In this document: positions 7,537 to 47,678 of the stretch, piece after piece
Layout: every line of letters starts with the position of its first letter
Numbering within the stretch: position 1 is the first letter of the stretch
From: a virus
Taxonomy: Duplodnaviria; Caudoviricetes
Length of the DNA stretch: 64,000 nt
Strand: one strand, 5' to 3'
IMG/VR virus record: IMGVR_UViG_3300023170_000023
Span: 60 to 64,059 of that record
The notes under the pieces: generated by a model
What the model was told of the DNA's origin: nothing
Databases searched by the model: none
What the model saw: the letters and a program-made list of their open reading frames with translations, nothing else
Position numbers and translations under genes: made by a program

Positions 7537-7544
7537 TATTTATA
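7537..7544 (-). promoter_or_regulatory. T4-type late promoter TATAAATA (gp13 operon)
   Basis: Exact TATAAATA on the minus strand about 20 nt upstream of the gp13 ATG. Confidence 0.8.
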
Positions 7545-10500
7545 CGTTACCCCAGAGGACTGCACCTGCAGAATCGTATATAACCAAAGTTCTGTCGTTA
7601 GCATCCTGAAGTTTAACACCAGTGTCGAGTTTGAGTTTTTCAGTGTCAGTAACCAAAACCTCACCAGCACTATCGATCTTAACCCTCGTTCCAGCAGCAC
7701 CAAAATCGTTACCAGCAACCCTAAGTTCCATTCTGGCAGTTTCACTGCCTGCAGTTCTTTCTGTGAATACAGTTCGAATCTCAGCGTATTCGTACTCTTG
7801 AGTCGCGCTAGTGCTGTTACCTGAAGTGAACAAAAGTTTACTAGCGGTAGCAGCACCATTTGTTCTGTTATCCAGTTTAAAATCTGTGGAAGAATAATCT
7901 GTAGTGATCGACGCTCCGTTTTGCCCGTCTAGTATCAACTGGTTTGTAACAAATCCGTCTGCAATAGACTTAACGCCAAATCGCATTTTAGTAAACGAAT
8001 CACCACTACCGTTGTCAGCACTATCAAAAGCAATGAAGTGTGATATCGTGTTACTTACATCAGTCTTAACATTAATACCAGAGGAAGTGCCGTTCGCTTC
8101 GTTATTAATAGTTAAGAAATTCCCCATATTGATACTGTGAGGAGTTGTAACATAATTATCATCGATTTCCAAATCAATACTTTCGGTATTGCTTGGGTAA
8201 GTACTAAACTGGAATTTAGTGGGGAGGTTTCCACTAGAGACTGTATCGTTTGCTACTACCCTAAGAGAAGCACCAATGCTTTGAGAAGTATTATCAACAC
8301 CATTCCAAATAATTGAACCAAGTTGATCTCCGTTTTGAATTGGTGACAAATCAAACGCACTGTCTCCACGGTTTTTTGCCAGAACAAGATATGAACCGAA
8401 TTCGTTGTTGCTGTGTCTTGTTAAAGAGACAATCGATTCGTTTGCTCCGTTGCCGGAAATTTCAGTAAAACCAGCAAGAGAAGCAGCAGTAGTTACGGCA
8501 ACGTTTTCAACAAAGTTTGCTCCAGCACTGAATCGATAACGTGTTACACCGAGGTTGTCGATATCAAAGAAAGCATCTCTTAGATTAACCCTATCATTGT
8601 GAGTGGTTAAAAAATTAAACGTAGCAGAGTCTTCGACTATCAGTCGCTCATTTGCCGTGATTGAAGGTGCACCAGATAGTTCATCCCTCTTAAACGACAT
8701 CATTGGATTATATGATGGGAAGAAGTTAGATGCGTAAATACCAAATTCTTTCGAAACAGGTTTGAAGAACCAAGGGAAAGTCGTGGTTCCGCCAATGTTC
8801 ATTTGAACAACGGATTGTCCACCGTCTAATCGATACTCAATCTCATCAGCACCACCAGAATCATATCGCAAAGAAAGTCGAGGAGTTGATCCTCTCGACA
8901 TGATCTCACCTTCTGCAGTGATCGTTCCGTTTTGCGCGTTGATCGTGCTACCAACAGAGAGTTTGTTCAGTGCGACAATGTTGCCAGAAACTTCTGCGCT
9001 ATCGACTTGAAGTCTAGTTCCACCTTGACGCCCTAGAAGTGCCGCTTTGTATTCGCCACTGAATGCTGTACCAACGGGAGTGTCTGCGAATACCCCTCCG
9101 GGGTTATAACGGAGATAAACATCACTCGCAGCAATAGGATGTTGAGTTTTGTTACCCGCAGCGGCAACAGTGTCTAAAGTAGATTGTTGTAAGAACTCAT
9201 CAACACCAGCATAGAAAAGTTTTCCGGTTGCTTCGTCTTGAACAATTACCTGAGTCTTTGTAGCATCATTAGCGAGGTTAGTTAAATAAAAGTCACCAGT
9301 GAATGCTACATTTTCGTTTGTAGAGTCGATACCAGAGGTTGTTAATGACGCACCATAATTGGTAACAGTCTTCAACGTCTCTGTTGGCGTGTTCTGATTG
9401 ATTACACCAATTTGACCTCTAGCAACACGGTTGGTGTCTGTGTTGATAACCAACATCTGCCAGAAGTTTGCTGCTTGTGGATCTGTGGTGTTGATCGCAG
9501 CACCATCAAGAAGAGTCGTTCCTCCGGGTGGTAATTCTAAACCGCCACCAAACGTACTCAGAATGTCTGTAGAGTCTCCTGCTTCAGTAACCGCCTGAAG
9601 TGTTGGGTCAAGGAAAGCAGCATCACTAAGTTTACGATAACCTACCTGATCAGTGTCGCTGTCCCACATAAGAGCAGCGTCTGTTGATAATAATGGGAAG
9701 TTTCCTCTCTTGATATAGATCTGGTTGGCATTCGTAATCGTAATGCCTTTCATCTTCAACCATTGGTCTGTGCTATCACCAACACCAGAGAAAGTAGCAC
9801 CATCAGGAAAGTTAGTAACTTGGTAAAGTGTTTGCCCATTCTCAAAGGCAAGATCACCGAGTGCGCGATAACCAACGCTGTCATGTGCTACGTTGTAGAA
9901 GAGAGCGTTCTGGGTCCCGGTGTATTTACTAACACCCGTCCAGTTATCCGCCTGCATCTTCAATTTACCGATAATAACATTATCAGTAGTTTGTGACCAA
10001 TTTTCTGTTCCGTTGCTTAACGCAGTTTGTCCGTGACTTGTGACATAAGATAATGTGATTTCATTATCGTCTCTGTTCGCAACCGTGCCTAGCGTTCTGC
10101 GTCCAATCCTATCACTATCTCCTACGGCAGCCGTAGAAGGATCTGGGTGGAAAACAGGTACTTGTAAACTGGTAGACCATGGAGATTGGTTGGTAATCTG
10201 AGTCCTATCAATCCATAGTCCATCGTTTACGTGAACCTCATACCCGCCTGATGAATCTCCCTGCTCAAGAGTGAATGCCCACGTAAACTCTTCCAGTGGT
10301 TGTGTAGCACCAGAGTTAAGAGTAACTCTAAACGCACTGTCGGTGCCGCCTGCATCAGCGAGACGAATAACATCGAACTGACCTGTAGGAGTTCCGGGAT
10401 TAGTTAATGCAGCAGTAAACCCACCATCAAGATCTATACTGCTAGAAGCAGAAAGTCTTTGTGCCATCGCGTTAGATCCGCGAACGACTGCAGCATCAAT

Positions 10501-13500
10501 CGTAAAGTTAGCAAGAGGTTCGAAAGCAGTAGTTTCAAGAACGGTAGAAACTACACTATCATCTTCGAGTCCTGCTACCGTAAGATTGTTGTTTCTATTT
10601 GTGAGGTTTTCAAGAACCAACCCGCCCTGAATCGTGACCTTACGTGAAGTCGTAGCATTATGATCTGTGACATACTGAAGATTAACAATGTCTAACAGAT
10701 CACCAAGCGTATAGTATTGCGCACTGTCATTAGCAGTGAGAGACATAATCTCTATATTGTCATTTGATCCGCTCAGATTCCTTGAAATGTTAAACGACGC
10801 ACCACCATTAAAGTAAACTGGGATAGTAGTCGTTCTACCGTTTTCTGTAACGTCTTGTAACGTAGGTCCAGTGAAAATATAAGCAGGAACATCTCTTGCT
10901 TGTACTTCTCCTGAAGGATCGATGGTTAATACCGTATCGTCTTCGACCCCCACGAGACTTGAAAGGTTGAGTCCACCAACAATAGCAGTAGAATCTAAAG
11001 TTGTAACACCGTCTACATTAAGATCACCGCCTACTTGTAAACTAGGAACTACAAGATCTTTATTGAACGTGAAGTCATCGTTGACAGATCCATAAAGAAG
11101 TGTAGCAGATCCGTCTGCACCAAGATTAACTGTAATACCACCACCGTCAGCGTCTGACTTAACGAGTGCGCTATCTGCCAAAGTGATATTAACATCGTTA
11201 ACAGAGAGGACGGTGCTATTGATAATAGTTTGAGTACCCTCGACTCTCATGTCACCAAGAACAACAAGTTCGTTAACTGTGACTGAATCTAAAGTAGAAG
11301 CACCAGCGATATTAAGACCACCTGTCCCTGTTAGAATAATATCCCTACCTGATTGATTATTGTTGGCAAGAACATCGTCTAATCCTAGAGCAGTTCCGTC
11401 TAAGATGTTAGCATTAACTGTTAGATATTCGACACTATCTCCTGCAGGAGTTTGTAACACCAGCAAGTTATAAGTTGCAGCGGTTGTTACAGGATCCGCA
11501 ATGGTAGATATACCACCGTTCAAATACAACGGGGTAGTTGTCGTATTAAATCCAGCGGGTCTCGTAGGATCTGTTACAGTTTCTAAAGTCTCTCCGGTAA
11601 ATGCAGTTGATTCTATAGACCTTCTTTGAACTTCGTTCTCAGCATCAATGATAAGAACGTCGAGAGCAGTAGGATCGCCTTGTAAGTTAGTGAGATTAAG
11701 TCCACCGTCGATATTAGTAGAGTCTAAAGTTGTGGTACCGTCTACATCAAAATTACCAAGAACGTCGAGACCTTGATTAACTTGAACATTCTGAACAAGC
11801 AGTTTGGTGTTTCCATTATCCCATTGTAAATTGTCGTTAAAGGTTAACTTGCCGCCAGTAGTTGCGTAAGGAATTCTTCCTGCCGTGATATCTGAAACCG
11901 TGATTCCAGCAACAGTTGTTTCGCCTGCTTCTAAAATATCTGTAACAGTAAGATCGCCATCTATAGTCGTAGAGTCTAAAGTAGTGGTTCCACCAACATC
12001 GAAATTAACTAACGTTTGAAGAGTAGTTCCATCAAACGTTAGATTTGCGTCAACCTCTAACTCTCCACCGGGTCCTGTAAAGACTATCGCATCATTAGTG
12101 TTAAGATTGGTAACAGAAAGCGGACCCTGAATAGTTGCAGAGTCGGTAACACGAAGAACGGTTGAGGTTGCAGATTCAACTAGGATGCCGTTTGCAATCA
12201 TCCTTCGATCAGTTTCGTTCCCTCTTTCGGTGACAGATTGTAAAGTATCATCTTCACCGTCAAGGAGATTATTGTTTAATTCACGAAGAATTACTTTACC
12301 AAGGGTATCATCGTATACTAAGAAACGATTGAAAGTATTAGTACCCGTTTCAATGACAGCAGAGTCTATTAAGAAACCGATACCTGCAGCATTGTTAATA
12401 ACCAATCCACCTACAGTGATTGAGTGATCCGTGCTATCACCAAAACCAGAGGATGATGATGGATCCGCTTGATCTGTTACTGACTGTAAAGTGTCTAGTT
12501 CTGTTCCTGTGAACGCAATAGTGTTAAGATTAACAAACCCTACAGAGTCACCGCCACCGATTGCTAAAACTCTTGGTTCGTTGACTGCTCCAAGGTCTCC
12601 ACGGTTACCTAATATAAAGTTCCCCGTAAGTTCCATTTCTTGGTTAGACGTGCCATCATTACCTAATACAAAGTCAAGGGTTACTAGTGAACTATTGAAA
12701 GCAATATCTTCAGCAAGTCTTACACCAACAATTGCACTGTCTCCAATACCAAAAGTTTCTGCGACCAATACGGTGTTGGTGCCGTTGCGAGTTTGCAGAG
12801 GTTGATCGTTTACAGTTCCTCTTAGTTTAACTGTGTTGCTGAATATAACACGGTTTCCTGTTTCCCCTGTATCGTATCCTACCTCTTGTCTTCCGGAAAC
12901 TGAATGTAATGTTTCGAAAGTATCATCGAGGTTTGTAACTTCAATGTTTACTACTTCGTATTCTTTAGAAATTGAATTCCATTTAACTAAAGGAACAGTT
13001 CCGGATCCGGGAAGATTTCCCGTAGTCGGATTTACAACATCAATTTTATTAACTCGAATATCATCAGTTGTACTATCAAAGATAGCAAGGTCTCTAAGAT
13101 CACGATAACCAATAGAGTCATCGATGCTCTCTATAACTAAACCTTTACGATAAGAAGTTTTACTGACTCCTCTGTCTTTTGGAAGTTGTCCGAACTGTAA
13201 AAACGTTGCGCGGATACCTTTATCTGTGGTAGCACCAAAACGACCCGACGAACCTTGATCTCCTGCAGCAATAGATTGCTCTACTACTTGTTGTAGGGTA
13301 GGAGCAGTAAAGTTTGTAAAGTTGAATAGACGTGAACCTACACTATCTGCGTCACCAAGAACAACCAAACGAATAGAATTTAATCCTGTGAATCCAGAAC
13401 CAAAAGTATTACCGTCGAGGTTAACGCTTCCGGCTGCGCCGAATTGAACAGCGTTATCAAATCGTGAATACCCATCCACTTGCATGGAGTTTTCTGCTTC

Positions 13501-13956
13501 AATTCTCAGAGCATACACTGTGCCCGGAAAAACATCTGCTCCTGTAGAACCTATCTCTTGTAATACAATACCTTGGTCAGTTGTGTTACCGCCTTGGGTT
13601 ACAATCTGAAGGTTTAGGTCTGTGAAATCACTAAACGCTAAGTCACCTAATTGTCTAAAACCAACACTATCATCACCGGGATCAAAGGGATTAGTCTTTA
13701 ATATTAAAGCAAAGTCATCATTCACTTCCGCTTCGGGAAGTTGGCCGTCTTCAAACAGAAGTCCATTTAAAATGGGTTTTTTAGTAAACCCACGGGTACC
13801 ATCAGCGTTAGAAAAGAATAAACTATTATCGCTGTCTGGGTTACCCGGATTAGGTTCTGCTTGCTCTAAGGAAAGGTATTGATAACGATCTGCGTCCAGT
13901 TCGTCAACAGGTCTCCTAATAACCTTCCCTGCGAGTGATATGAGTCTCTTAGCCAT
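7540..13956 (-). CDS. Giant fibre-like virion structural protein (2138 aa)
   Basis: About 17 TLQxVTxxGxxT-type modules, VDGxTTLDST repeats and a Gly/Thr/Asp/Ser-rich composition; located in the structural cluster. Confidence 0.7.
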   Translation of the reverse strand: MAKRLISLAGKVIRRPVDELDADRYQYLSLEQAEPNPGNPDSDNSLFFSNADGTRGFTKKPILNGLLFEDGQLPEAEVNDDFALILKTNPFDPGDDSVGFRQLGDLAFSDFTDLNLQIVTQGGNTTDQGIVLQEIGSTGADVFPGTVYALRIEAENSMQVDGYSRFDNAVQFGAAGSVNLDGNTFGSGFTGLNSIRLVVLGDADSVGSRLFNFTNFTAPTLQQVVEQSIAAGDQGSSGRFGATTDKGIRATFLQFGQLPKDRGVSKTSYRKGLVIESIDDSIGYRDLRDLAIFDSTTDDIRVNKIDVVNPTTGNLPGSGTVPLVKWNSISKEYEVVNIEVTNLDDTFETLHSVSGRQEVGYDTGETGNRVIFSNTVKLRGTVNDQPLQTRNGTNTVLVAETFGIGDSAIVGVRLAEDIAFNSSLVTLDFVLGNDGTSNQEMELTGNFILGNRGDLGAVNEPRVLAIGGGDSVGFVNLNTIAFTGTELDTLQSVTDQADPSSSSGFGDSTDHSITVGGLVINNAAGIGFLIDSAVIETGTNTFNRFLVYDDTLGKVILRELNNNLLDGEDDTLQSVTERGNETDRRMIANGILVESATSTVLRVTDSATIQGPLSVTNLNTNDAIVFTGPGGELEVDANLTFDGTTLQTLVNFDVGGTTTLDSTTIDGDLTVTDILEAGETTVAGITVSDITAGRIPYATTGGKLTFNDNLQWDNGNTKLLVQNVQVNQGLDVLGNFDVDGTTTLDSTNIDGGLNLTNLQGDPTALDVLIIDAENEVQRRSIESTAFTGETLETVTDPTRPAGFNTTTTPLYLNGGISTIADPVTTAATYNLLVLQTPAGDSVEYLTVNANILDGTALGLDDVLANNNQSGRDIILTGTGGLNIAGASTLDSVTVNELVVLGDMRVEGTQTIINSTVLSVNDVNITLADSALVKSDADGGGITVNLGADGSATLLYGSVNDDFTFNKDLVVPSLQVGGDLNVDGVTTLDSTAIVGGLNLSSLVGVEDDTVLTIDPSGEVQARDVPAYIFTGPTLQDVTENGRTTTIPVYFNGGASFNISRNLSGSNDNIEIMSLTANDSAQYYTLGDLLDIVNLQYVTDHNATTSRKVTIQGGLVLENLTNRNNNLTVAGLEDDSVVSTVLETTAFEPLANFTIDAAVVRGSNAMAQRLSASSSIDLDGGFTAALTNPGTPTGQFDVIRLADAGGTDSAFRVTLNSGATQPLEEFTWAFTLEQGDSSGGYEVHVNDGLWIDRTQITNQSPWSTSLQVPVFHPDPSTAAVGDSDRIGRRTLGTVANRDDNEITLSYVTSHGQTALSNGTENWSQTTDNVIIGKLKMQADNWTGVSKYTGTQNALFYNVAHDSVGYRALGDLAFENGQTLYQVTNFPDGATFSGVGDSTDQWLKMKGITITNANQIYIKRGNFPLLSTDAALMWDSDTDQVGYRKLSDAAFLDPTLQAVTEAGDSTDILSTFGGGLELPPGGTTLLDGAAINTTDPQAANFWQMLVINTDTNRVARGQIGVINQNTPTETLKTVTNYGASLTTSGIDSTNENVAFTGDFYLTNLANDATKTQVIVQDEATGKLFYAGVDEFLQQSTLDTVAAAGNKTQHPIAASDVYLRYNPGGVFADTPVGTAFSGEYKAALLGRQGGTRLQVDSAEVSGNIVALNKLSVGSTINAQNGTITAEGEIMSRGSTPRLSLRYDSGGADEIEYRLDGGQSVVQMNIGGTTTFPWFFKPVSKEFGIYASNFFPSYNPMMSFKRDELSGAPSITANERLIVEDSATFNFLTTHNDRVNLRDAFFDIDNLGVTRYRFSAGANFVENVAVTTAASLAGFTEISGNGANESIVSLTRHSNNEFGSYLVLAKNRGDSAFDLSPIQNGDQLGSIIWNGVDNTSQSIGASLRVVANDTVSSGNLPTKFQFSTYPSNTESIDLEIDDNYVTTPHSINMGNFLTINNEANGTSSGINVKTDVSNTISHFIAFDSADNGSGDSFTKMRFGVKSIADGFVTNQLILDGQNGASITTDYSSTDFKLDNRTNGAATASKLLFTSGNSTSATQEYEYAEIRTVFTERTAGSETARMELRVAGNDFGAAGTRVKIDSAGEVLVTDTEKLKLDTGVKLQDANDRTLVIYDSAGAVLWGNV

Positions 13957-14321: not shown

Positions 14322-17300
14322 TTATCCCTCTAATGCTAGAATATATGGTGTTAACACCGCGAACAACGATCTGTCAAACGTTGTTCCTGTAATCGTTCCT
14401 GACTCACGGTTAATGGTCAAGTCTCCACCAATACGGAAGTCACCAAGTTCGTCCGTAGCAGTGAAGTATACCAAACCAAAGTTAGGCGTTAATGATTCAG
14501 CAGAGTCAAATACAATTTCGTTTTCTTTCTTCGGTATACCGCCGTTCTGAGGAATAGCAGCAAACATGTTTGTACCCGAACCTACGAATTCAAACGTGTG
14601 TGAAGAAGCACTAATCAATGATCTCTGATGGAAATCTACTTTCTGTTCAGCACCTGCGTTTTTATTTAGTGGTGGTGCAATCGTCAATTCATAAGAACCT
14701 GTCTCTGGGAGAATAGAAGAATAAGTGAATACTGCACCATTATCTCCTTCAACGGTTCTCTTATCTGCACTTACTGCAATGTAATCACCTGTTCCACCAA
14801 TAGTAGCATATCTACCGAAACGATCATCCGCAGTGCTACCATTACCGTCACCCACTTTTTGAACTGTTTGTGGTTTGATCATAGCGACTTCAGACCAGTT
14901 TGTTCCTGCACGTTCTACCATATATACCGCACACGAATCATTTAAATCGTTTCTAGGATTCTGTCCGACAATAACCAAGTCACCTTTAGTGTTCATATCA
15001 ATAGTAGTACCAAACCCTTGGTCTGTTCGAGCATCCCTTGGGTATACTAATTCCTGCAGACTCCAAGAACCTTCATTAAACCGATAAAGTTCTACACCGC
15101 CTGAATTAGGATGATAACCAAAGATGTAATCAAAGTTACCGTCAATGGTCCCAGTTGTTGGATTGGATAACTCTAACGTATTACCTACAATATCAACAAT
15201 CGTCGTATTATCAGGGATTCGCGTGTCTTTGCTAGTATACTCAATGGTTGTAGCAGAAGAGGCATAGACCCTTTGTCCAATCTCAAACTTACTTGCATCA
15301 TTAACCTGAAGGAAAACGCTTCCCGTTGCTTGAGAAGGAGCAGAATCTATCGCAGTTAGAGCAGTCTGTGAAGAAGTGAAGGCAGCATAACCGTTAGTCT
15401 TGTTCATCACTATTTCAAAATCTGCTTCGTCATTTTGTGCTAACTGAGACGTAACGTTTTGTGAGATACTATAGTTTCCGAACTGATTCTTAGTATAATA
15501 GTAATGAGTATTTCCTCTCCACGAAACAAGAACTGCTATACCATCCTCATTGATTGTGGTTCGAGGAGCAAGTGCTGCAGTGCCTTTCGGGAACAAAAGT
15601 TTCTGTTTGAATTGGTAACCATTAACATCGTTAGCAGAATCTCTTCCCCAAATCTGCACCGAACCAGAAATGAATCCAGCATCTGAGTCTGCTCTATTAG
15701 AAAGCAACAATGTGTTACCATCAGCAGACAATGACATTCTATCGCCTAACCTTCTATTTGTATTCGGATTTGGTGAAGAAGAAACAGAATCTTGAATAAA
15801 TTGAACCTGATTCCACAATGAAGTGTCAACGCTATCTTGATGATAAACATATGCACCACCGTATTGAGTTAGACCTACACCGCCAACAACGTGACGGTTA
15901 GCAGGAGCAGCAACTACAATTGTAGTCCCATCTTCGCTCATTACAATCTGTTGTCCGAATGCATCAGAATCCGCAGCATTGTTTACCGGGTTAGTAGGAA
16001 CAATCGTTGATGTGTTAGTCCATGCCAAAACATCACGATTTAGTATTTCTACATTACGTTCTTCGATGTTTGCAAAGGCAAGAACTTGATCGTTCTTAGA
16101 CATGCGCACACCAAACCCTGTACCAAAATCCGCTGGATCGTTAGAAGCGATTTTAATTTGATCTTCATTTCCTGACACAGACCAGTTCTGCAAAATCTCG
16201 TCTGAAACATTTAGAATCGTATAGTAATACGAATCAGTAGAAAATTTAATTGCATCGTTATAGTTCGGAGTTTTAAAATCTCCAAGGTTCAATGAGTAGT
16301 TTGCTGAGTCTGTATTAAGAATGCCGTTAACTCGAATGATATCATCGTTCAAGTTGTAATCTGCATGCAACGAACCATTGTAGATAGACTTAGATCCACC
16401 CGTTGCAACGAGACCAAAGTCTCCAAACGATGAGTTCGAGTTTGTGATCGAGCACTGGGCACCCGACTCTGCTTTGATCGAAGTTGACGTGGAAATCGTG
16501 AAGCACGATACCAACTGTGCATATGCACGTTCTTTCAGCAGAACTCCAATACCGTCTGCGTTGAACTGAGTGAATGCGTCAAGAACCATTGAGCGAAGAC
16601 CAGACACTTTAGATCCATCGATCTTCATACCGATACCTGATGTAGTCAACGAAGTACAGTTCTGAACATAAGGCGATTGTGTGATAAACGGACCTGTAAT
16701 ATTATCGTTGCGTGGATCGAACGCGACACACGCTGCACCGTTCTGATGATCACGGAATGTAATCTCTTTAACGTAACAACCGTTATCAACCCAGAAGATA
16801 TCGCTATCTACGTTACGAGGACGAATAGTCGTTGATCGTAATGCGTCTCCGATGATAGCAGTCTTCGGAGGAAGTTTGATTGGATTGTTGACGGTGTAGT
16901 CACCAGACTTCAAGAAGATCGTAGTGTCTGCCCCTTGGTTATCAGAAACTGCCAAAGACTGTGTAATAATTGTTTGTCTTACAGACGTAACAACTGGGTC
17001 TTTATTAAACTCTGTAAACGCTTCATAAATGTCTGGGTATGTAATCTTAATACCCAAAGCGATAGGATCTGGGAATGTTAAAGTATTAAACCCAACTGCT
17101 AGATCGAAAGGATAGTTATACTGATAAAGTTCACCATTAGGACCAAAGAAATCACCAATTTGGAAAATACCAGTCGAAGATTGTTCTAACGCATGAATAA
17201 TCAGGTCTAACAGATTTCCTACACGAGTTAAGTGTACACCAGAAACTCCTTGAGTTCCGATAATAATTTTAAGTTGCTCATATGCTGCTACGGTTGCAGC

Positions 17301-20300
17301 AAGTTCGCTATCTCCTAAGATGTCTGCATACCCTTTGTTGAACACAGAGAAGTATGAACGCATAGAATATGAAGTAGCACTGTTACCACCATACTTAAGA
17401 TCGTAAACCAAACCGTCTACAATATAACCAACGTCTCTTCGACAAGTTGCTTGATCATAGGAGTAGGTTGGGAATACAGAATTTGCATAGAAAACTGTTT
17501 GTTGTTGCAGAGTCGTTTTGTTCGTATGGAACAATGCTGCCTGTCCTGATATAGCAGGAAGTGTAACAGTAACTAACTCATCAACTGAAGGAGATGCAGG
17601 AGGAGTGATCTGAATCGCATTGATGATAATATCAAGCAATTGGTTTACACGAGTTTCTTCTGCACTCGTCGAGATATATGAGTTTGCAAAGACTTTGAGT
17701 TGTTCGTATGCGGCAACTGAAGCAACGATTTCTCCGTCACCTAACTGATTAGTCCAGTTATCCGCTTGTCCATCTAGATCTTCGTAAGTAGTACCACCTT
17801 CTATATCAAGGTCCGTCCCTACCCAGTAAGAACGTGCGTTGGTGTCAGAAGCAAAGGTGCCACCGAAAAGAATATCATGAGTCAAAGCATCTACGATATA
17901 ACCAACGTCTCTTTCACACTTGTCTTGGTTATATTCTAACGAATCGTAATTCTGTTGAATCCACGTGATGATCTGACGCTGCATCTTTCTTCGATTAACG
18001 ATGAGTGCGTTTGCAGCATTTCTCTTATCAGCATCTTCTTGACCTGTCCCATCAAAGAATATTGGATCTCCGTCTTCTGCACCATAGGCACCTGTTTCTT
18101 CAAGGAGGTCTGTGATTTCTTTTGCACGTGCAGTAATGAAAGTTTGACTGGCTTCTGTCAATCCTGCCGTAGCATTGATTTGATCACGTAAGTAATTGAT
18201 CGAATCAACTGTATATTGTAACTGATCTGATTGAACTTTTTGTGCATTACCTCGCTGATAAGCAAGACCTGCGGTTATGCTATTATAGTTCGTATTGTTT
18301 TGTAAATCAAGTGCGATTGCATCGACGATCAATCCCGTGTCTCTTTCACACTTATGCTGATCAAAGTTAGAAACAATCGTAGAGTCGTTTACGTAATCGA
18401 TAACTCTGTTCTGAATTGCTCCAGTATCGTTCTTGATCAGATCATAATTTGTAGTATCGAATCCTGTGGTGTCGATATCGACTTCAGCAGGAATATCATC
18501 GATGCCACCAGCAGCGATAACATTAGTCACGATAGCGATGAGTTCATCGACTCGTACATCTTCTGTTACGTTAGGTAATAGTTTAACTCTTCTTGCATAA
18601 TCATTGTATGCATCTATGGTTGGAAGAGATTCTCCTACACCCAATTGATTTTGAGTACCGACAAAGTATGATTTCGCAACGTTCCTCATAGCAGAGTTGC
18701 CACCGTATGTCAAGTCGGCAATGAGTGCTTCCGTTAAGAAGAGAGTGTCTCTTTCACACTTAGCAACGTTATATCCAACAAAAGTATTGACATAGTCGAT
18801 AACTTCTGTTTGTGTAGCAGTAATTGCTGTGTTGAGAGCATCATACTCAGTAGAGTTTAGTCCGGTTCTGTCAATGTCAATCTCAGCAGCAAGGTTGTCT
18901 AAACTCTGATCGTTGACAACTGTGATGATAATATCAAGCAAGTTAGAGATGTAAGTTTCTTCAGGTGTTGTTGCTACTACTGCATTAATTAAAGTCTTTA
19001 AGTTCTCGTATGCAGAAGCAGTAGCAAACACCTCACCAGAACCTAATTGAGAGATGGCACCAACATAATATGACTTAGCATTGGTAATTGTTGCTGAGTT
19101 GCCACCATACTGAACGTCATGAGAAAGAGCATCAAGGATGTACCCAACGTCTCTTTCACACTTGTCTTGATCATAGAACGAGAAGTTATCCCTTCCATAC
19201 TCGATAGTATCGTTAATTATAGTAGCTTCAGATGTATTGATTTCGTTCCATTCCGTCAAAGAAAGTCCTGCAGTGTCTATTTCTACTTCCGCTGGAATGC
19301 CAGAAGTATTTCCTGCAGAGATCACATCTCTTACGATATCAACAAGGGTTGCGACCCTAGCGTCTTCGAACACGTTAATTAGTAATTGAATGTTGCTCTT
19401 TAAAACTTCGTAGGCAGCGACTGTAGGTAGTTCTTCCTGAGATCCTAACTGAGAGTTAGTTCCTGAGAAATAAGCAAGCGCAGCAGTTCTACATGCCGTG
19501 TTTCCACCGTACAAAAGATCGTGACTAATTGCGTCAATTAAAAATCCGGTGTCTCTTCGACATGCGACTTGATCATATACTAATTCAGGGTAGTAAGTAT
19601 CAAGATAGTTAGTAGTATCGTCAATTAAAACCTGACGGTTCGCTTGCACTTCTTGACTCTGAGCAGCACGTCCAGCAACGTTTGCATAAGTTCCGTTAAC
19701 TGGATACGTAATGCTTGTGTGCGGTGTTGTTGTCGTGCCGTTAAGAACATCGATTACACGACCAAACAAAGTGTCAACCGTAGCATCGCTGGACACATTT
19801 GGCAGTGCTTTGATTTGATCTCTTGCGTATTCTACTAATGCTATGGTAACATCTCGTTGATCGCTCAAAACATATGCTGAAGTAGATCGCAAATATGAAT
19901 TAGCAGCAGTCAACGTGTTGTAATCTGTACCAAGAACGAGGTCTCTTCGAACAGCGTCGATTATAAGAGACAAGTCTCTTTCGCAGGTTGTACCTAAACC
20001 GCTAAAGTTGTCGTTGATATATTCTGTAGTATCTGATATAATCGACGCACGATTCGACTGAATTGCCGCCGCTGCAGCGATTCTGTTTGCAGTTTGGTAT
20101 ACAGATCCAACTGTGTTTGGATAGTTGATAGAAGGATATACAGGAGGTGTGTCACTGATGTAACTAGTGATACGAGCGAAAAGCGTGTCAATAGTAGCAT
20201 CACTTGTGACATCTGTCAAGTCTTTCAAATAATCTCTTGCTACGTTGACAGCGTCAATAGTAATTTGTTTTTGATCGCTCAGAACATATGCAGAGTTTGC

Positions 20301-23300
20301 TCTTTGATATGCATTACCTGCCGTGTTTGTGTTGTAATCTGTACCCAGAATTAAATCTCTAGATACCGCTTTGATAATTTCTTCAACATCACGGGAACAC
20401 TTATCTACATCATATTCGAATCCTATACCATCATAGTTCTCGAAAATATATGTTGTAGTATCATCAATAAGAGTTTGATAATTGTTTATAATGTCTTGCG
20501 CTTGGGCAAATCTTGTGTTAGAATACGTTCCTGCTCCGGTATCAACCCAACCACCAATAACTCCGGGTTCAGTAATAGTTCCGTTAAGAACATTAAGTAC
20601 GTTGACAAACAGGTAGTTGAGATCTAGACCCGTAAGAGTAAAAATTTCATCCCTGACAAAATTGACTGCGTCTATCGTCGCTTGTTTCTGATCCGATAGA
20701 ACGTAAGCAGAGTTTGCACGTAAGTATGCAAACCCAGCAGTTTTAGTCCAGAATGTAGTACCAAGAAGAAGGTCTCGTCTCACCGCATCAAGAATTAATC
20801 CTACGTCCCGAGCACACTTGCCTGCATCATATCCTGCTAGTTGTGTTGCCCAATTTAAATTGACATAGTCGATAGTTGCAGCTTGAGTTGCTGAGATTCC
20901 CGCTATTATAGCATCAAATTCTGTGGTGTCAAGTCCTGTTGTAACGACCTGAACTTCAGCAGGCAGACCAACTAGTCCGTTTTCGATAACATCCGTGATG
21001 ACATCAAACTTTAATCCTGCAGCATTTTGCTCTAAGGTAGTAGCAATGATTGCTTGGGTTCTAGTTTTAAGATCGTTATAGGCAGCAACGGTTGCTTCAA
21101 TTTCTCCGTTGCCTAATTGAAGCACACTACCTACGTAGTAAGCTTCTGCGTTAGTTCGGGTTGCAGTGTTACCACCGTATTGAACATCATGAGCAACAGC
21201 GTCTAGGATATACCCAGCATCTCGTGCACATGCTGCTTGGTCATAGAAAGAATAATTTGTTTGACCATACAGTAAAGTTGCATCACTAATAATAGTTTTG
21301 TTGTTTGTTATAGCATCAAATTCTGTAGTTGTCAACCCTGCGGTGCTAATATCTACTTCTGCGGGTACGCTATCAACATTACCTGCGGTGATCGCATCTC
21401 TGGTGATGTCTATAAGTTCTGCTACCCTAACATCTTCGGTGACGTTTGTCAACCCTTGAATTTCAGAAATGAGATGTCCATATGCTTCAACGGTGATAGG
21501 ACCTTCTCCGGTTCCTAACAATGAAACAGCAAACGAGTAGTATGCTAAAGCAGCACTTCTCGAAGCGGAGTTGCCGCTATACAAAAGGTCATGCAACAAA
21601 GCATCAATTAAAAACCCTGTGTCTCTTTCGCATGCAGCAACATCATATCCAACGAAAGTGTTAACAAAGTCTATAACTACTTCTTGTGTTGATGTGATGT
21701 TAGATTGCAATTCGTCAAACTCTGTAGTGGTCAGTCCAGCAGTACTAACTTCTACTTCAGCAGGCAGACTATTTAAGTTGCCTGCAGTCAAAACTCCTGT
21801 TATAATATCAACCAATCCACCAACAACTGTTTGTTCAGCAGACGTAGTGACCACCGAATTCAGTCTTGTTTTCAGATCATTGTAAGCAGCGATGGTTGCT
21901 TGAGTTTCGGTTTCACCTTCAGAGTTGACACCGGGTCCTAATTGTGATACAGTGCCGACAAAATATGCTTCTGCATTAATTCTAGTACCTACGTTACCAC
22001 CATACTTGACATCGTGTGCCAAAGCATCTAAGATATATCCTACGTCTCGCTCACAAGCATCCTGATCGTAGTTCTGATAGAATTCTCTTCCGTGTGCGAT
22101 GGTGTCGCTTGTAATAGTAGATTCCGCAGCAGTAATAGCATCAAACTCTGTGGTAGTATAACCAGCAGTAGAAATCTCGCTGAGTGCAGCAATACTGTCC
22201 ACATTACCTGCAGTGATTACACCAGTCGTAATACCGATAAGTTCGTCAACGCGAGCATCTTCTGAAACATTAGTGAGTGCCTTGATTCGTGTTGCCAAAT
22301 CATTGTATGCTGCTACGGTTGCAGACTCTTCACCGGAACCAAGTTGTGCGGTTCCAAAAGAGAAGTATGCGAGTGCAGCATCTCTAGAAGCAGAGTTACC
22401 ACCATAAGTCAAGTCCGCAATCAAAGCATCGATAATCATCCCCGTGTCTCTTTCACACGTTGCTACATCATAAACCAGTAACGGGAAGTTAACATTAATG
22501 TAAGCAGTAGTATCTGAGATCAAAAGTGCTCTGTTATTAACAAGATCGTCTCGTTGCAGATCTCTTGAATTAGAACCTGCGTAGGTTCCTGTAATTGGGA
22601 ACCCAGTTGGTACTTGAATGGTAGAAATCGTAGTGTCTAGAATGTCAGTGACTCTCTTGAACAAAGTGTCAATCGTAGCATCACTAGTTACGTTAGGAAG
22701 TGCCTTGACTAAATCCCTAGCATATTCCACCAAAATTTTAGTTACGGCAGACTGTGTGCTTAAAACATAAGCGGAAGCACCACGCAGATAAGCGTTACCT
22801 GCAGTCAGAGTCCAGTAGTCAGATCCAGTCAAAAGATCTCTTTCTACTGCATCAAGGATTAACCCAAGGTCTCGCTCACACGTAGCACCAATATCTAAAT
22901 CAAACCAGTTCTGACTGATATAGGTAGAAGTTCCTTCAATCAAAGTTTGACGGTTTGCTTGGATTGCTGCAGCAGCGGCAATACGATCAGCAGTTTGATA
23001 TGTTGATCCAGCAGTCGTAGGATAATTGATTGTAGGATACGCAGGAGGCGTATCTGAAATGAAACTGGTTACTCTTGCAAACAGAGTAGTAATAGTAGCA
23101 TCGCTAGTGATAGCAGGAAGTGCTATCAAAGTATCTCTTGCAAGATTTACTGCATCAATTGTAATTTGCTTTTGGTCACTCAGAACGTAAGCAGAGTTTG
23201 CTCTTTGATAAGCGTTACCAGCAGTGTATGTATTGTAATCGGTTCCTAGTAACAAGTCCCTTGCAACCGCATTGATAATGTTATCAACGTCTCGTGAACA

Positions 23301-24896
23301 TTTAGCACGATCATACTTGAAGGAGATCTGTTCGTAATTGTCGAAAATATACTGAGTTACACTTTCGACAAGTGTCGTTTTTGCTCCTTGAATTGCATCA
23401 TGCTGTGCTTGACGTGTAGACGCATAAGTACCAACCACCGGATATGTGGTTACAGGTTGAACAGTGGTATTGGTTCCGTTAAGAACATCAATCACGCGAG
23501 CAAACAAAGTGTCTACTTGTGAGTCACTGGTAACATCTGCTAGTGCCTTGACCTGATCCCTTGCGTATTCTACTAATGCTATAGTAACATTTTTCTGCTC
23601 TGAAAGAACATAAGCAGAGTTTGCACGTAAGTATGAGTTTCCTGCCGTGATAGAGTTATAATCTGTTCCTAAAATTAAATCACGACGAACCGCATCTAGA
23701 ATCAAACCAAGATCTCGCTCACATGTAGATCCGATTCCAGTGAAGTTATCGTTGATATACTTGGTTGTGTCAGCAACCAAAGTAGCACGGTTTGCCTTGA
23801 TTGCCGCTGCAGCATTTACCCTAGCAGAAGAATTAGCAGACTGATAGGTTGCACCCGGTGTCTGAGGATAATTGATAGCAGGATAAACCGTTTGCGAACC
23901 ATCAAGAACAACCGTGACGTTTCTGAACAATTGCTCAATATCTGTGTCGCTGGTGACGCCAGAGAGTGCAGTAACATAGTCCCTAGCAAAATTGACACCA
24001 GCGATTGTAGCATCTTTCTGGTCACTTAAAACATATGCTGAGTTTGCTCTGTTATACGCCCACCCTGCGGTAACCGTGTTGTAGTTCGTACCCATGATAA
24101 GGTCACGTGCTACTGCGTTAACAATCAATCCAACATCTCTCGCACACTTGGTGGCATTGTATGATCCAGTCAAGAAATCGTTTGCGGGGTCATTTAGATA
24201 GTCTAATACCGCATCTTGGATTGCGTCTTTGTTGTCGATAAGAATCTGAGCAGCAGCGTTCGAACCACCGTCTGTAGCATCGTATTCAATCGGAGGATCA
24301 GGATAAACAAATTCTGATGCATCACCGCCGACAAGAATTTCAATGATCTCATCGAACCCTGCCGATACTCGTTGTTTAGCAATAGAACTGGTTTTAACTT
24401 CTGGAACCGAGATCATACCAAGACGTTCTTCGTTGATCGCACGTCTGGTTTGATACAACTGTTCTGCCGTTACCTTAGCGGCGTTGCCCCTTTTATAAGA
24501 CTGACCAGAGATGATGCTACCAAAGTTTGTGCCCAACAACATATCATATCGAACGTTGTCCATGATGAGGTTGAGGTCACGATGACATACATCTCTATCG
24601 AACTTGAAACTTTGTTTTGCATATACAACCGCTACCGCTGAGTCTAGGGTAGCAAAAGAATTCATTAAAGACTTACCGTCATTACCTTTGGTACCTGACT
24701 GAGACACATAATAAACGTTGTCTACATCTTCGGCACCGATAGACTGGATGGAAAGTTCGCCATCTTTATTCTTTTTGATGTATGCTTTACCATCGTGAGT
24801 GTTGATGGCAATTTCACCGAAATCGATTTCATTCAGTGTCGGGGCACGTCCCGGAATATCACTGCGTGGAAATAATATTTTTTTACGTGATGCCAT
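14322..24896 (-). CDS. Giant virion protein (3524 aa): pectin-lyase-like beta-helix interrupted by 18 helical CxRD repeats, plus an FG-GAP-like propeller
   Basis: N-terminal GEIAINTHDGKAY and YYVSQSGTKGNDG motifs; 18 CxRD repeats; TTIFLKSGDY...IIGDALRSTTIRP...QSPYVQNCTS...SMVLDAFTQFN; FGQQIVMSEDGTTIVVAAP-type blades. Confidence 0.75.
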   Translation of the reverse strand: MASRKKILFPRSDIPGRAPTLNEIDFGEIAINTHDGKAYIKKNKDGELSIQSIGAEDVDNVYYVSQSGTKGNDGKSLMNSFATLDSAVAVVYAKQSFKFDRDVCHRDLNLIMDNVRYDMLLGTNFGSIISGQSYKRGNAAKVTAEQLYQTRRAINEERLGMISVPEVKTSSIAKQRVSAGFDEIIEILVGGDASEFVYPDPPIEYDATDGGSNAAAQILIDNKDAIQDAVLDYLNDPANDFLTGSYNATKCARDVGLIVNAVARDLIMGTNYNTVTAGWAYNRANSAYVLSDQKDATIAGVNFARDYVTALSGVTSDTDIEQLFRNVTVVLDGSQTVYPAINYPQTPGATYQSANSSARVNAAAAIKANRATLVADTTKYINDNFTGIGSTCERDLGLILDAVRRDLILGTDYNSITAGNSYLRANSAYVLSEQKNVTIALVEYARDQVKALADVTSDSQVDTLFARVIDVLNGTNTTVQPVTTYPVVGTYASTRQAQHDAIQGAKTTLVESVTQYIFDNYEQISFKYDRAKCSRDVDNIINAVARDLLLGTDYNTYTAGNAYQRANSAYVLSDQKQITIDAVNLARDTLIALPAITSDATITTLFARVTSFISDTPPAYPTINYPTTAGSTYQTADRIAAAAAIQANRQTLIEGTSTYISQNWFDLDIGATCERDLGLILDAVERDLLTGSDYWTLTAGNAYLRGASAYVLSTQSAVTKILVEYARDLVKALPNVTSDATIDTLFKRVTDILDTTISTIQVPTGFPITGTYAGSNSRDLQRDDLVNNRALLISDTTAYINVNFPLLVYDVATCERDTGMIIDALIADLTYGGNSASRDAALAYFSFGTAQLGSGEESATVAAYNDLATRIKALTNVSEDARVDELIGITTGVITAGNVDSIAALSEISTAGYTTTEFDAITAAESTITSDTIAHGREFYQNYDQDACERDVGYILDALAHDVKYGGNVGTRINAEAYFVGTVSQLGPGVNSEGETETQATIAAYNDLKTRLNSVVTTSAEQTVVGGLVDIITGVLTAGNLNSLPAEVEVSTAGLTTTEFDELQSNITSTQEVVIDFVNTFVGYDVAACERDTGFLIDALLHDLLYSGNSASRSAALAYYSFAVSLLGTGEGPITVEAYGHLISEIQGLTNVTEDVRVAELIDITRDAITAGNVDSVPAEVDISTAGLTTTEFDAITNNKTIISDATLLYGQTNYSFYDQAACARDAGYILDAVAHDVQYGGNTATRTNAEAYYVGSVLQLGNGEIEATVAAYNDLKTRTQAIIATTLEQNAAGLKFDVITDVIENGLVGLPAEVQVVTTGLDTTEFDAIIAGISATQAATIDYVNLNWATQLAGYDAGKCARDVGLILDAVRRDLLLGTTFWTKTAGFAYLRANSAYVLSDQKQATIDAVNFVRDEIFTLTGLDLNYLFVNVLNVLNGTITEPGVIGGWVDTGAGTYSNTRFAQAQDIINNYQTLIDDTTTYIFENYDGIGFEYDVDKCSRDVEEIIKAVSRDLILGTDYNTNTAGNAYQRANSAYVLSDQKQITIDAVNVARDYLKDLTDVTSDATIDTLFARITSYISDTPPVYPSINYPNTVGSVYQTANRIAAAAAIQSNRASIISDTTEYINDNFSGLGTTCERDLSLIIDAVRRDLVLGTDYNTLTAANSYLRSTSAYVLSDQRDVTIALVEYARDQIKALPNVSSDATVDTLFGRVIDVLNGTTTTPHTSITYPVNGTYANVAGRAAQSQEVQANRQVLIDDTTNYLDTYYPELVYDQVACRRDTGFLIDAISHDLLYGGNTACRTAALAYFSGTNSQLGSQEELPTVAAYEVLKSNIQLLINVFEDARVATLVDIVRDVISAGNTSGIPAEVEIDTAGLSLTEWNEINTSEATIINDTIEYGRDNFSFYDQDKCERDVGYILDALSHDVQYGGNSATITNAKSYYVGAISQLGSGEVFATASAYENLKTLINAVVATTPEETYISNLLDIIITVVNDQSLDNLAAEIDIDRTGLNSTEYDALNTAITATQTEVIDYVNTFVGYNVAKCERDTLFLTEALIADLTYGGNSAMRNVAKSYFVGTQNQLGVGESLPTIDAYNDYARRVKLLPNVTEDVRVDELIAIVTNVIAAGGIDDIPAEVDIDTTGFDTTNYDLIKNDTGAIQNRVIDYVNDSTIVSNFDQHKCERDTGLIVDAIALDLQNNTNYNSITAGLAYQRGNAQKVQSDQLQYTVDSINYLRDQINATAGLTEASQTFITARAKEITDLLEETGAYGAEDGDPIFFDGTGQEDADKRNAANALIVNRRKMQRQIITWIQQNYDSLEYNQDKCERDVGYIVDALTHDILFGGTFASDTNARSYWVGTDLDIEGGTTYEDLDGQADNWTNQLGDGEIVASVAAYEQLKVFANSYISTSAEETRVNQLLDIIINAIQITPPASPSVDELVTVTLPAISGQAALFHTNKTTLQQQTVFYANSVFPTYSYDQATCRRDVGYIVDGLVYDLKYGGNSATSYSMRSYFSVFNKGYADILGDSELAATVAAYEQLKIIIGTQGVSGVHLTRVGNLLDLIIHALEQSSTGIFQIGDFFGPNGELYQYNYPFDLAVGFNTLTFPDPIALGIKITYPDIYEAFTEFNKDPVVTSVRQTIITQSLAVSDNQGADTTIFLKSGDYTVNNPIKLPPKTAIIGDALRSTTIRPRNVDSDIFWVDNGCYVKEITFRDHQNGAACVAFDPRNDNITGPFITQSPYVQNCTSLTTSGIGMKIDGSKVSGLRSMVLDAFTQFNADGIGVLLKERAYAQLVSCFTISTSTSIKAESGAQCSITNSNSSFGDFGLVATGGSKSIYNGSLHADYNLNDDIIRVNGILNTDSANYSLNLGDFKTPNYNDAIKFSTDSYYYTILNVSDEILQNWSVSGNEDQIKIASNDPADFGTGFGVRMSKNDQVLAFANIEERNVEILNRDVLAWTNTSTIVPTNPVNNAADSDAFGQQIVMSEDGTTIVVAAPANRHVVGGVGLTQYGGAYVYHQDSVDTSLWNQVQFIQDSVSSSPNPNTNRRLGDRMSLSADGNTLLLSNRADSDAGFISGSVQIWGRDSANDVNGYQFKQKLLFPKGTAALAPRTTINEDGIAVLVSWRGNTHYYYTKNQFGNYSISQNVTSQLAQNDEADFEIVMNKTNGYAAFTSSQTALTAIDSAPSQATGSVFLQVNDASKFEIGQRVYASSATTIEYTSKDTRIPDNTTIVDIVGNTLELSNPTTGTIDGNFDYIFGYHPNSGGVELYRFNEGSWSLQELVYPRDARTDQGFGTTIDMNTKGDLVIVGQNPRNDLNDSCAVYMVERAGTNWSEVAMIKPQTVQKVGDGNGSTADDRFGRYATIGGTGDYIAVSADKRTVEGDNGAVFTYSSILPETGSYELTIAPPLNKNAGAEQKVDFHQRSLISASSHTFEFVGSGTNMFAAIPQNGGIPKKENEIVFDSAESLTPNFGLVYFTATDELGDFRIGGDLTINRESGTITGTTFDRSLFAVLTPYILALEG
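16930..24615 (-). repeat. Array of 18 ~130-160-aa repeats, consensus (Y)DxxxCxRDxGxI(I/L)DAxxxDLxxG
   Basis: Manual count in the translation. Class A has DLxLGT(D/N)Y...RANSAYVLSDQ; class B has DxxYGGN...QLGxGE. Confidence 0.9.
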
Positions 24897-40626: not shown

Positions 40627-40862
40627 TAGTTTTTCTCCAGTAATTGTTGTAACATGCCTTTGATATCAGACATATCGTTTTCTAAATTGCTAATACGATT
40701 AACAAGATCTTGTTTCTCTTGCTGTTCTTTTAATTTCAGATCACGAGTTTTACGATACGCTTCAAACTCGTCCACGTTCGTATTTATCAAAGCACCGCTA
40801 GTTTTGTCTCTTACTAAATGCGGATGGTCTATCACTTGTTGATATCTGCTAGGATCAAGCAT
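40626..40862 (-). CDS. Small coiled-coil hypothetical protein (78 aa)
   Basis: HPHLVRDKTSGALINT followed by a heptad-rich C-terminus; translationally coupled to both neighbours. Confidence 0.7.
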   Translation of the reverse strand: MLDPSRYQQVIDHPHLVRDKTSGALINTNVDEFEAYRKTRDLKLKEQQEKQDLVNRISNLENDMSDIKGMLQQLLEKN

Positions 40863-47670: not shown

Positions 47671-47678
47671 TATTTATA
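47671..47678 (-). promoter_or_regulatory. T4-type late promoter TATAAATA (gp8 operon)
   Basis: Exact motif overlapping the gp6 stop codon. Confidence 0.8.

Follow-up and report, generated by a model that had tools for sequence, protein, structure and literature searches.

The stretch of viral DNA considered here (the window) comprises 64,000 nucleotides, positions 60 to 64,059 of the IMG/VR record IMGVR_UViG_3300023170_000023 (Caudoviricetes), the source record being a 64,059-bp virus fragment that is estimated to be 37% complete. On its minus strand lies a single giant open reading frame (ORF) of 3524 amino acids, denoted P0001, in which a short N-terminal part is followed by 18 tandem domains, very probably homologous to phycobiliproteins (PBPs), the bilin-carrying proteins of cyanobacterial antennae, and then by a C-terminal part of ~940 aa without such domains. 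In the following list, domain coordinates are the envelopes of profile matches, and each of domains 1 to 18 is identified by the motif C-x-R-D together with a profile match.

14322-24896, minus strand: giant ORF P0001, matching tail-fibre PHROGs 4527, 5342 and 17885
17148-24737, minus strand: array of 18 tandem domains with predicted phycobiliprotein fold (profile matches 18/18; fold model)
24294-24737, minus strand: domain 1, divergent, motif CHRD, Cys104 codon starting at 24587
23868-24308, minus strand: domain 2, subtype A, Cys251 codon starting at 24146
23442-23885, minus strand: domain 3, subtype A, Cys392 codon at 23723
23028-23462, minus strand: domain 4, subtype A, Cys533 codon at 23300
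22599-23042, minus strand: domain 5, subtype A, Cys673 codon at 22880
22173-22616, minus strand: domain 6, subtype B, Cys814 codon at 22457
21765-22205, minus strand: domain 7, subtype B, Cys948 codon at 22055
21366-21779, minus strand: domain 8, subtype B, Cys1089 codon at 21632
20958-21380, minus strand: domain 9, subtype B, Cys1223 codon at 21230; sub-threshold PF00502 match
20544-20975, minus strand: domain 10, subtype A, Cys1361 codon at 20816
20133-20555, minus strand: domain 11, subtype A, Cys1500 codon at 20399
19707-20138, minus strand: domain 12, subtype A, Cys1638 codon at 19985
19299-19721, minus strand: domain 13, subtype B, Cys1779 codon at 19562; best PF00502 match (15.9 bits); domain modelled (19302-19706)
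18873-19310, minus strand: domain 14, subtype B, Cys1913 codon at 19160
18492-18905, minus strand: domain 15, subtype B, Cys2047 codon at 18758
18060-18509, minus strand: domain 16, subtype A-like, Cys2183 codon at 18350
17571-18074, minus strand: domain 17, subtype B with a 20-aa insert, Cys2327 codon at 17918
17148-17582, minus strand: domain 18, subtype B, Cys2485 codon at 17444
14322-17147, minus strand: C-terminal part without PBP-fold domains (FG-GAP match and tail-fibre PHROG module)

The motif occurs 18 times in P0001, with 134-158 aa from one motif Cys to the next. A first-pass annotation, made from the sequence alone, had claimed that every repeat keeps C-x-R-D and that its Cys is nearly the only one in the array; both claims hold, the motif being present in 18 of 18 repeats and accounting for 18 of the 19 cysteines within the range that had been flagged (aa 94-2656; the exception is C1802). 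The coordinates given there, 16930-24615, were right to within ~200 nt, since scanning the six reading frames of the window with a profile places exactly 18 domains, with E-values from 5e-28 to 3e-44, at 17148-24737; in the same scan, the other giant ORFs of the window showed no PBP-fold domain. The 18 repeats, which share 15-73% identity in pairwise comparisons and fall into two subtypes (A and B), have in common the C, R and D of the motif, a second Asp 11 residues past the motif Asp and a Tyr 27 residues past it. Inside each subtype, two variants alternate (R2/R4/R11 versus R3/R5/R12, and R6/R8/R13/R15 versus R7/R9/R14), and therefore the duplicating unit of the array seems, as far as the sequences tell, to be a pair of domains, along with larger blocks; the closest pairs are R4-R11 (73% identical) and R3-R12 (66%), within P0001 aa 239-2170 (window ~18387-24182). 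The C-terminal part, presumed to be the distal or receptor-binding end of the protein, contains an FG-GAP repeat match (aa 2972-3018, window 15843-15983) and a terminal module (aa 3393-3523, window 14328-14720) that is common to several tail-fibre PHROGs; no solved relative of the C-terminal 885 aa was found by sequence.

That P0001 is a giant phage structural protein, as had been supposed, fits both with its matches to phrog_4527 (E 2.5e-131), phrog_5342 and phrog_17885, all named 'tail fiber', and with its surroundings: the neighbouring genes bear the PHROG names tail-tube cap, baseplate wedge, baseplate hub/tail lysozyme and tail sheath stabilizer, as well as head closure and head-tail adaptor or head-tail connector proteins. 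The gene thus sits in a T4-like baseplate/tail morphogenesis module. The putative location of the protein in the virion is based on homologues annotated as 'virion structural protein' or 'structural protein'.

The family to which the repeats belong is large. A search of 1.84 billion cluster representatives with the 18-repeat profile retrieved 1239 proteins at E <= 0.001, 820 of them at E <= 1e-10 (all counted as cluster representatives); many are 2000-6400 residues long, with up to 36 matched stretches per protein. In the best 150 of these 1239 proteins, taken together with P0001, there are 1638 domain matches, of which 1579 include the N-terminal part; C-x-R-D is kept in 1493 of the latter, and the other 86 mostly have C-x-E-D or C-x-x-D with the Cys retained, only a few being without Cys. 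Among 806 full-length repeats from the same proteins, made non-redundant at 60% identity, overall identity is ~20-30%; the Cys is conserved in 97%, the Arg in 96%, the Asp in 99%, the second Asp (D27) in 100% and the Tyr (Y43) in 99%, and the motif Cys is the sole Cys of each domain. As many as 660 of the 1638 domain matches cover the N-terminal part of the profile only, the best such stretches extending over about its first 70-75 positions (P0002-P0151); therefore, many relatives appear, by this sequence criterion, to bear shorter 'half' units around the Cys helix.

When considering the relationship of these domains to PBPs, the first question is whether standard searches detect it. PF00502 (Phycobilisome protein) is the Pfam family matched by most repeats, albeit only 3 of 18 at E <= 10 and always below threshold; the two sub-threshold matches on the repeats scored 15.9 and 13.2 bits (best E 0.013) versus a cut-off of 22.2, the whole P0001 protein had no PF00502 match at E <= 0.1, and one control genome, that of E. 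coli, likewise gave a sub-threshold match. By that family's own threshold, the domains lie outside PF00502. Nevertheless, when the 18-repeat profile was compared with PDB sequences, 6 of the 7 matches at E <= 10 were PBPs, the best being the allophycocyanin beta-18 subunit (E 0.049). With small profiles (4 PBPs versus 18 repeats), hhalign aligned 28 columns at 58% probability; in single-sequence hhalign comparisons, the probability was 82-90% for CpcA-type sequences and 7-64% for other PBPs.

The comparison of larger alignments is more telling. The 806-repeat profile was aligned by hhalign to a profile of 24 PBPs, non-redundant at 80% and drawn from an Acaryochloris plasmid and three cyanobacterial genomes (the sole member of this set without C-x-R-D is a weak, divergent paralogue), with a probability of 95.9%, P = 6.4e-9 and a score of 51.0 over 84 columns. 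The register places repeat columns 10-94 on PBP positions 80-163, that is, from helix E with Cys84 through helix H. Reversal of either profile reduced the score to 9-10, and 100 column shuffles of the PBP alignment yielded a mean of 11.2 (sd 2.5, maximum 18.7). Upon removal of the first 34 columns, which hold the whole motif region, the score was 21.4 (P = 0.0013) with the register unchanged, and when C-x-R-D alone was masked, it was 27.1 (P = 3.9e-4, 83 columns). Because the alignment survives removal or masking of the motif and fails in the reversed and shuffled controls, the likeness between repeats and PBPs extends, at the level of sequence profiles, beyond the motif. Circular permutation of the repeat profile, with the last 45 columns put first, lengthened the alignment to 115 columns (PBP 35-162, score 54.1); the last 45 columns alone did not align significantly with the PBP profile (score 13.1). 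A profile re-framed in the same sense (A3), when used in HMMER against PDB sequences, gave 34 matches at E <= 10, of which 30 are PBPs (best E 0.0038), the alignment covering PBP 32-103, i.e. helix B and helix E. Taken together, the profile methods put the repeat Cys on PBP Cys84 and reach helices B and E-H.

The same alignments determine where a domain begins and ends. The unit as initially framed (A1), starting 12 residues before the Cys, gave an AlphaFold2 model with a pLDDT of 82.9 and no PBP among the 50 Foldseek matches listed, the best of which were four-helix cytokines at E 0.36. This framing was an artefact, because hhalign and HMMER join the last two helices of unit i to the first ~95 residues of unit i+1; the true domain consists of these two portions, with its boundary moved by ~45 residues relative to the first framing, and the variable proline-containing loop is the linker. 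The re-framed unit, from Cys-48 to Cys+86, was modelled for domain 13 from an alignment of 73 sequences (18 of them window units, the other 55 taken from viral contigs that a degenerate DNA pattern derived from the window's own motif had retrieved); this alignment being deeper (73 versus 18 sequences), the improvement of the model does not come from framing alone. The model has a pLDDT of 92.4 and a pTM of 0.86, the five models ranging from 91.0 to 92.4 in pLDDT, and is composed of six helices, with the Cys three residues into the long third helix. In Foldseek against PDB, all 50 matches listed are PBPs or PBP domains, with a probability of 1.00, TMq of 0.59-0.75, root mean square deviations of 2.8-6.0 A and 131-165 alignment columns; they include phycocyanin, phycoerythrin, phycoerythrocyanin, cryptophyte biliprotein beta chains and the bilin domain of ApcE. 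The domain is thus predicted to adopt the globin-like PBP fold, with helices equivalent to A/B, E, F', G and H. A counterpart of the X-Y hairpin is missing, as the alignments begin at about PBP residue 32-35; in PBPs, this N-terminal hairpin serves the pairing of alpha and beta subunits. Look-alikes sought in the ESM Atlas were unnamed clusters only, at 0.83-0.85, below the useful range, and were set aside.

Three further statements of the first-pass annotation are borne out at this point: the repeats are helical in the AlphaFold2 models; their C-x-R-D, likened there to the Cys84 region of phycocyanin alpha, is aligned with PBP Cys84-x-Arg86-Asp87 by the profile methods; and the check proposed there, namely AlphaFold and Foldseek on one repeat, was passed, once the boundary had been shifted. 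It could be argued that an unrelated helical repeat has acquired, by chance or convergence, a K-C-x-R-D-x-G-Y-like motif and that AlphaFold merely reproduces a memorised PBP fold, given that all single-sequence and Pfam scores are sub-threshold, that the 4-PBP/18-repeat comparison was so short, and that the first model had no PBP-like match among those listed. However, the likeness persists in the same register without the motif and is absent in the controls, the alignment spans 115 columns, with secondary structure coinciding with the PBP helices, and the re-framed model is confident in all five runs, so that we deem this explanation very improbable. Conversely, it appears highly likely that the domains are homologues within the superfamily of PBPs and bilin-binding globins.

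As to the distribution among phages, a tblastn search of 50,697 phage records with three repeats matched 201 records, all with cyanophage-type names (Synechococcus 143, Cyanophage 47, Prochlorococcus 10, 'Marine' 1); there was no repeat match in any of the numerous T4-like phages of Escherichia, Vibrio, Klebsiella and Pelagibacter within reach of a gp6 query, and the repeat DNA itself gave no megablast match to phage records. In BFVD, Foldseek found 12 matches at E <= 0.001; wherever an organism is named for a confident match, it is a Synechococcus phage, the annotation of the protein being 'tail protein', 'structural protein' or 'tail fiber-like'. Of 27 cultured phage genomes that were scored, 19 contain the domain, with 2-11 profile matches each and a single one in S-SKS1. 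In the latter phage (NC_020851.1), which has a T4-like gp6 match (E 5.8e-59) and is placed with P-SSM2 by the gp6 tree, the one PBP-fold domain lies in a frame of 928 aa. Among cultured phages, the domain is confined to cyanophages; it also occurs in two further lineages, that of the window and a clade with genomes of ~350 kb. Completeness estimates by CheckV imply ~350-kb genomes for most contigs with the exact motif pattern, and therefore this jumbo-phage clade is a major carrier of the domains in metagenomes.

The phage represented by the window was placed with the following gene:

47674-49449, minus strand: gp6-like baseplate wedge gene (PHROG match)

The gp6 protein shares 36-38% identity with its counterpart in Phage C48C1, 33-35% with that of Pelagibacter phage HTVC008M and ~31% with those of cyanomyoviruses. 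A quick gp6 tree joins the window phage to C48C1 (support 100) and places it outside the clade of cyanomyoviruses (97). No PBP-fold domain was found in the genomes of C48C1 and HTVC008M; the IMG/VR relatives with gp6 identity of at least 69% are all fragments of 60 kb or less.

PBPs and their relatives are cellular antenna proteins or soluble bilin-binding proteins. The phage domains resemble the PBP subunits (PF00502), and particularly phycocyanin alpha (CpcA), in the globin-like fold and in the position of C-x-R-D at the start of helix E, CpcA being the closest by the local motif K-C-x-R-D-[IV]-G-Y-x-[LV]. Unlike PBPs, which are free 17-kDa subunits, the phage domains lack the X-Y hairpin, follow each other in one giant polypeptide of putative virion location, and have lost R93 and Y97 while gaining the invariant D27 and Y43. 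A different parallel is offered by ApcE, where a PBP-fold domain, which is among the structural matches listed (4xxi_B, rank 50), forms part of a long multidomain polypeptide and attaches its bilin autocatalytically; yet in ApcE one PBP domain is followed by linker repeats, and the protein belongs to the phycobilisome rather than to a virion. A third group of relatives are BBAGs, PBP paralogues in non-photosynthetic bacteria; PBPs employ a CXRD motif the Cys, Arg and Asp of which serve the bilin, and BBAG-1 and BBAG-3, likewise with CXRD, need no lyase for the attachment of bilins (Rockwell et al. 2023, PMC10151467). Like the phage domains, BBAGs are located outside the light-harvesting antenna, some with CXRD, and, like those of the ~350-kb clade, they are associated with genes for heme oxygenase and a ferredoxin-dependent bilin reductase (FDBR); unlike them, they are small single-domain cellular proteins encoded beside pre-PcyA genes (this comparison is by description only). 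In the sections available to us of the paper on BBAGs, phages are mentioned alongside as sources of PcyX/PcyA enzymes, not of globins (PMC10151467).

Closest of all are the giant ORFs of T4-like cyanophages named 'short tail fiber', 'tail protein' or 'virion structural protein' (S-PM2 165928-177267, P-HM2, Syn1, S-RSM4), which contain the same domains, lie, similarly to P0001, near baseplate and gp12-like genes, and carry generic names only in the records examined. P0001 differs from them in its greater number of copies (18) and in belonging to a phage that branches with C48C1/HTVC008M. In the S-PM2 record (NC_006820.1), 16 tRNA features are listed at 168556-173383, inside the 11.3-kb coding sequence of the 'short tail fiber protein', the frame of which is open for 3792 aa; these features are probably an artefact of annotation coordinates. 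In the full-text literature, no description of PBP-like domains in phage fibres was found; supplements and most subscription journals lay outside this search, so that an earlier report is possible.

As regards bilin metabolism, nothing in the window matched FDBR, CpeT or heme oxygenase, in keeping with the earlier remark that it holds no bilin genes; because the record is a 37% fragment, this lack is uninformative rather than negative. Among 50 motif-carrying contigs, 49 are fragments estimated to be 7-60% complete, and one, G006, is complete (363,943 bp). G006 encodes 11 PBP-fold domains over three giant ORFs, an FDBR (54.3 bits; PcyA-like by NCBIfam, below the cut-off of that model) and, just upstream of and overlapping it, a heme oxygenase (hemO). 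The domains are present in each of the five largest contigs with a G006-type FDBR (3-10 matches per contig); neither G006 nor its 96%-complete relative has Photo_RC (psbA-type) or CpeT matches. Because all these contigs belong to one ~350-kb clade, the co-occurrence of hemO-FDBR with the domains counts as one observation. At G006:286338-289724, small ORFs adjoin the hemO-FDBR pair; judged by eye from the translations, they may correspond to a ClpS-like adaptor, a small heat-shock protein and a DnaK-like fragment.

The 27 cultured genomes were scored for CpeT and FDBR as well. CpeT is present in 16 of the 19 genomes with the domain and in none of the 8 without it (Fisher p = 7e-5; p = 0.002 among the 22 cyanomyoviruses), and in S-PM2, Syn1, S-CAM1 and S-RSM4 the cpeT gene and the array gene share a strand, with cpeT 1.2-3.1 kb upstream. 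In the quick gp6 tree, the four cyanomyoviruses that have neither domain nor CpeT form one clade, and so do the four phages with array-linked cpeT; because of this grouping, we treat both patterns as single-lineage observations. Comparative genomics, through the hemO-FDBR cassette of the ~350-kb clade and the confinement of the domain to cyanophages among cultured phages, lends some support to a bilin array, but with phylogeny considered this support is weak.

In the scenario that we favor, the 18 globin-like domains of the PBP superfamily, each of ~120 residues followed by a proline-containing linker, would follow one another in the same orientation and form the shaft of a giant fibre on the baseplate of a T4-like marine myovirus, with the non-repeat C-terminal part as the host-binding end. 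Each domain would bind a linear tetrapyrrole (bilin) covalently, through a thioether formed by the Cys, and the Arg and Asp would hold the pigment as they do in PBPs. Within the infected cell, the domains would acquire the bilin autocatalytically, in the manner of BBAGs and ApcE, or with the aid of a phage lyase, and the fibres of a virion would carry tens to hundreds of bilins. We infer covalent bilin binding because the bilin-serving C, R and D are kept, because there is one Cys per domain, and because relatives with CXRD attach bilins by themselves; by sequence and analogy, we put the probability of this reading at about one half, and the chromophore array on the virion, as already envisaged in the first-pass annotation, is likewise inferred.

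The main rival is a PBP-derived fold that is used purely as a structural spacer. In this case, the repeats would be rigid, ligand-free helical building blocks, and the conservation of C, R, D, D27 and Y43 would reflect a buried polar network required for folding or for the packing of one domain against another. Ligand-free repeats are, indeed, common in long phage fibres, D27 (100%) and Y43 (99%) are without a conserved PBP counterpart, the ~70-aa N-terminal 'half' units (660 of 1638 matches) suggest a modular structural element, and such a spacer would agree with the lack of bilin genes in the window and of an association between FDBR and the domain. On the other hand, a purely structural extracellular helical repeat has no need of a single near-invariant Cys (97% of the 806 repeats); precisely the Cys, Arg and Asp on which PBPs rely for the bilin are kept while the rest diverges to ~20% identity, and within the PBP set only a weak, divergent paralogue dispenses with C-x-R-D. 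All this considered, a ligand-free spacer appears somewhat unlikely.

Alternatively, the same fold might use the Cys for other chemistry, such as disulfide or thioether cross-links, a Cys/Asp/Asp/Tyr metal site that staples a multimeric fibre, or the binding of a ligand other than bilin, e.g. heme. Phage fibres are often metal-stapled trimers, and the location of C13, D16 and D27 on one face of helix E (i, i+3, i+14), beside the invariant Y43, fits a metal or ligand site; yet no analysis has yielded positive evidence for such chemistry, and the presence of R and D makes sense for a tetrapyrrole, which renders this possibility rather improbable.

Several observations weigh against bilin binding or against the homology on which it is based. 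No repeat attains the PF00502 cut-off, the best remaining at 15.9 versus 22.2 bits; the model on the initial repeat boundaries gave no PBP among the 50 matches listed; and for the re-framed model, the Foldseek E-values against PDB are modest, from 5.6e-3 to 2.4e-2, none being <= 0.001, and AlphaFold may have been drawn to the PBP fold by the motif. The invariant D27 and Y43 are not positions conserved in PBPs, and the PBP-conserved R93 and Y97 are lost, the R93 position being Asp in 80% of the repeats; therefore, the pocket may differ from that of PBPs. According to gp6, the relatives of the window phage are C48C1 and HTVC008M and not the cyanomyoviruses, and no bilin gene was seen in the window, although a 37% fragment of structural genes carries little information on this point. 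The co-occurrence of CpeT and the domain amounts to about one event or lineage, each pattern being possibly a single event; three phages, S-ShM2, P-SSM7 and S-SKS1, carry domains but no CpeT, the 27 genomes show no association of FDBR with the domain (7/19 versus 2/8, p = 0.68), and lyases of the T type are described in a review as acting on Cys153 and not on Cys84 (PMC10452541).

What purpose could a pigmented fibre serve? One suggestion is that it is the phage's own light sensor, with photochemistry or a light-driven conformational change in the array gating fibre deployment or receptor binding. It has been reported that P-HM1 and P-HM2 do not adsorb in the dark, that P-SSM2 does so, albeit less than in the light, and that adsorption of P-SSP7 is independent of light (Liu et al. 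2019, PMC6628666); the light-dependent adsorption of S-PM2 does not need host photosynthesis (Jia et al. 2010, as cited in PMC6628666). S-PM2, P-HM1 and P-HM2 carry the domains, and P-SSM2 and P-SSP7 do not, so that the presence of the domain parallels light-dependent adsorption; with five phages from four lineages, this parallel is suggestive only, and we consider the sensor function unlikely. If true, it would explain the long-known light dependence of cyanomyovirus adsorption, for which host photosynthesis is not required, and the phage genes hemO, FDBR and CpeT would gain a phage-encoded acceptor, including in phages that are not evidently cyanophages. The purpose of phage hemO/FDBR genes has been called 'still enigmatic', with host phytochromes or BBAGs as possible partners and no phage acceptor named in the available text of that source (PMC11480375).

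A PBP fold with a pigment-attachment motif appears to be deployed as tandem arrays in the tail fibres of abundant aquatic phages, and these domains would add a large, previously unrecognised branch to the superfamily of bilin-binding globins, which bears on the origin of PBPs (PMC10151467). With bilins attached, the array would be the first candidate for a chromoprotein built into a phage particle. It opens the way to testing the cause of light-dependent cyanomyovirus adsorption and the reason why phages, including some supposed to infect hosts other than cyanobacteria, carry hemO/FDBR cassettes.

Other features of the window concern the structural module around P0001. It contains three more giant ORFs, all on the minus strand: 7540-13956 (2138 aa), 32151-38513 (2120 aa) and 40862-46195 (1777 aa). 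At E <= 1e-5, no PHROG family was matched by the 2138-aa or the 2120-aa product; the 1777-aa product matched phrog_358, the function of which is unknown. The segment 34001-36000 is the only one before ~58 kb with clearly positive GC skew (+0.10), the region being otherwise negative; it coincides with a 502-aa antisense ORF (34425-35933, plus strand) inside the gene of the 2120-aa protein and may be compositionally odd or repetitive. Finally, two ORFs each account for part of the gp5-like 'baseplate hub and tail lysozyme' signal and are separated by a 619-aa ORF with an amidase/endolysin domain (50483-51964, 51961-53820 and 53817-54686, all on the minus strand).

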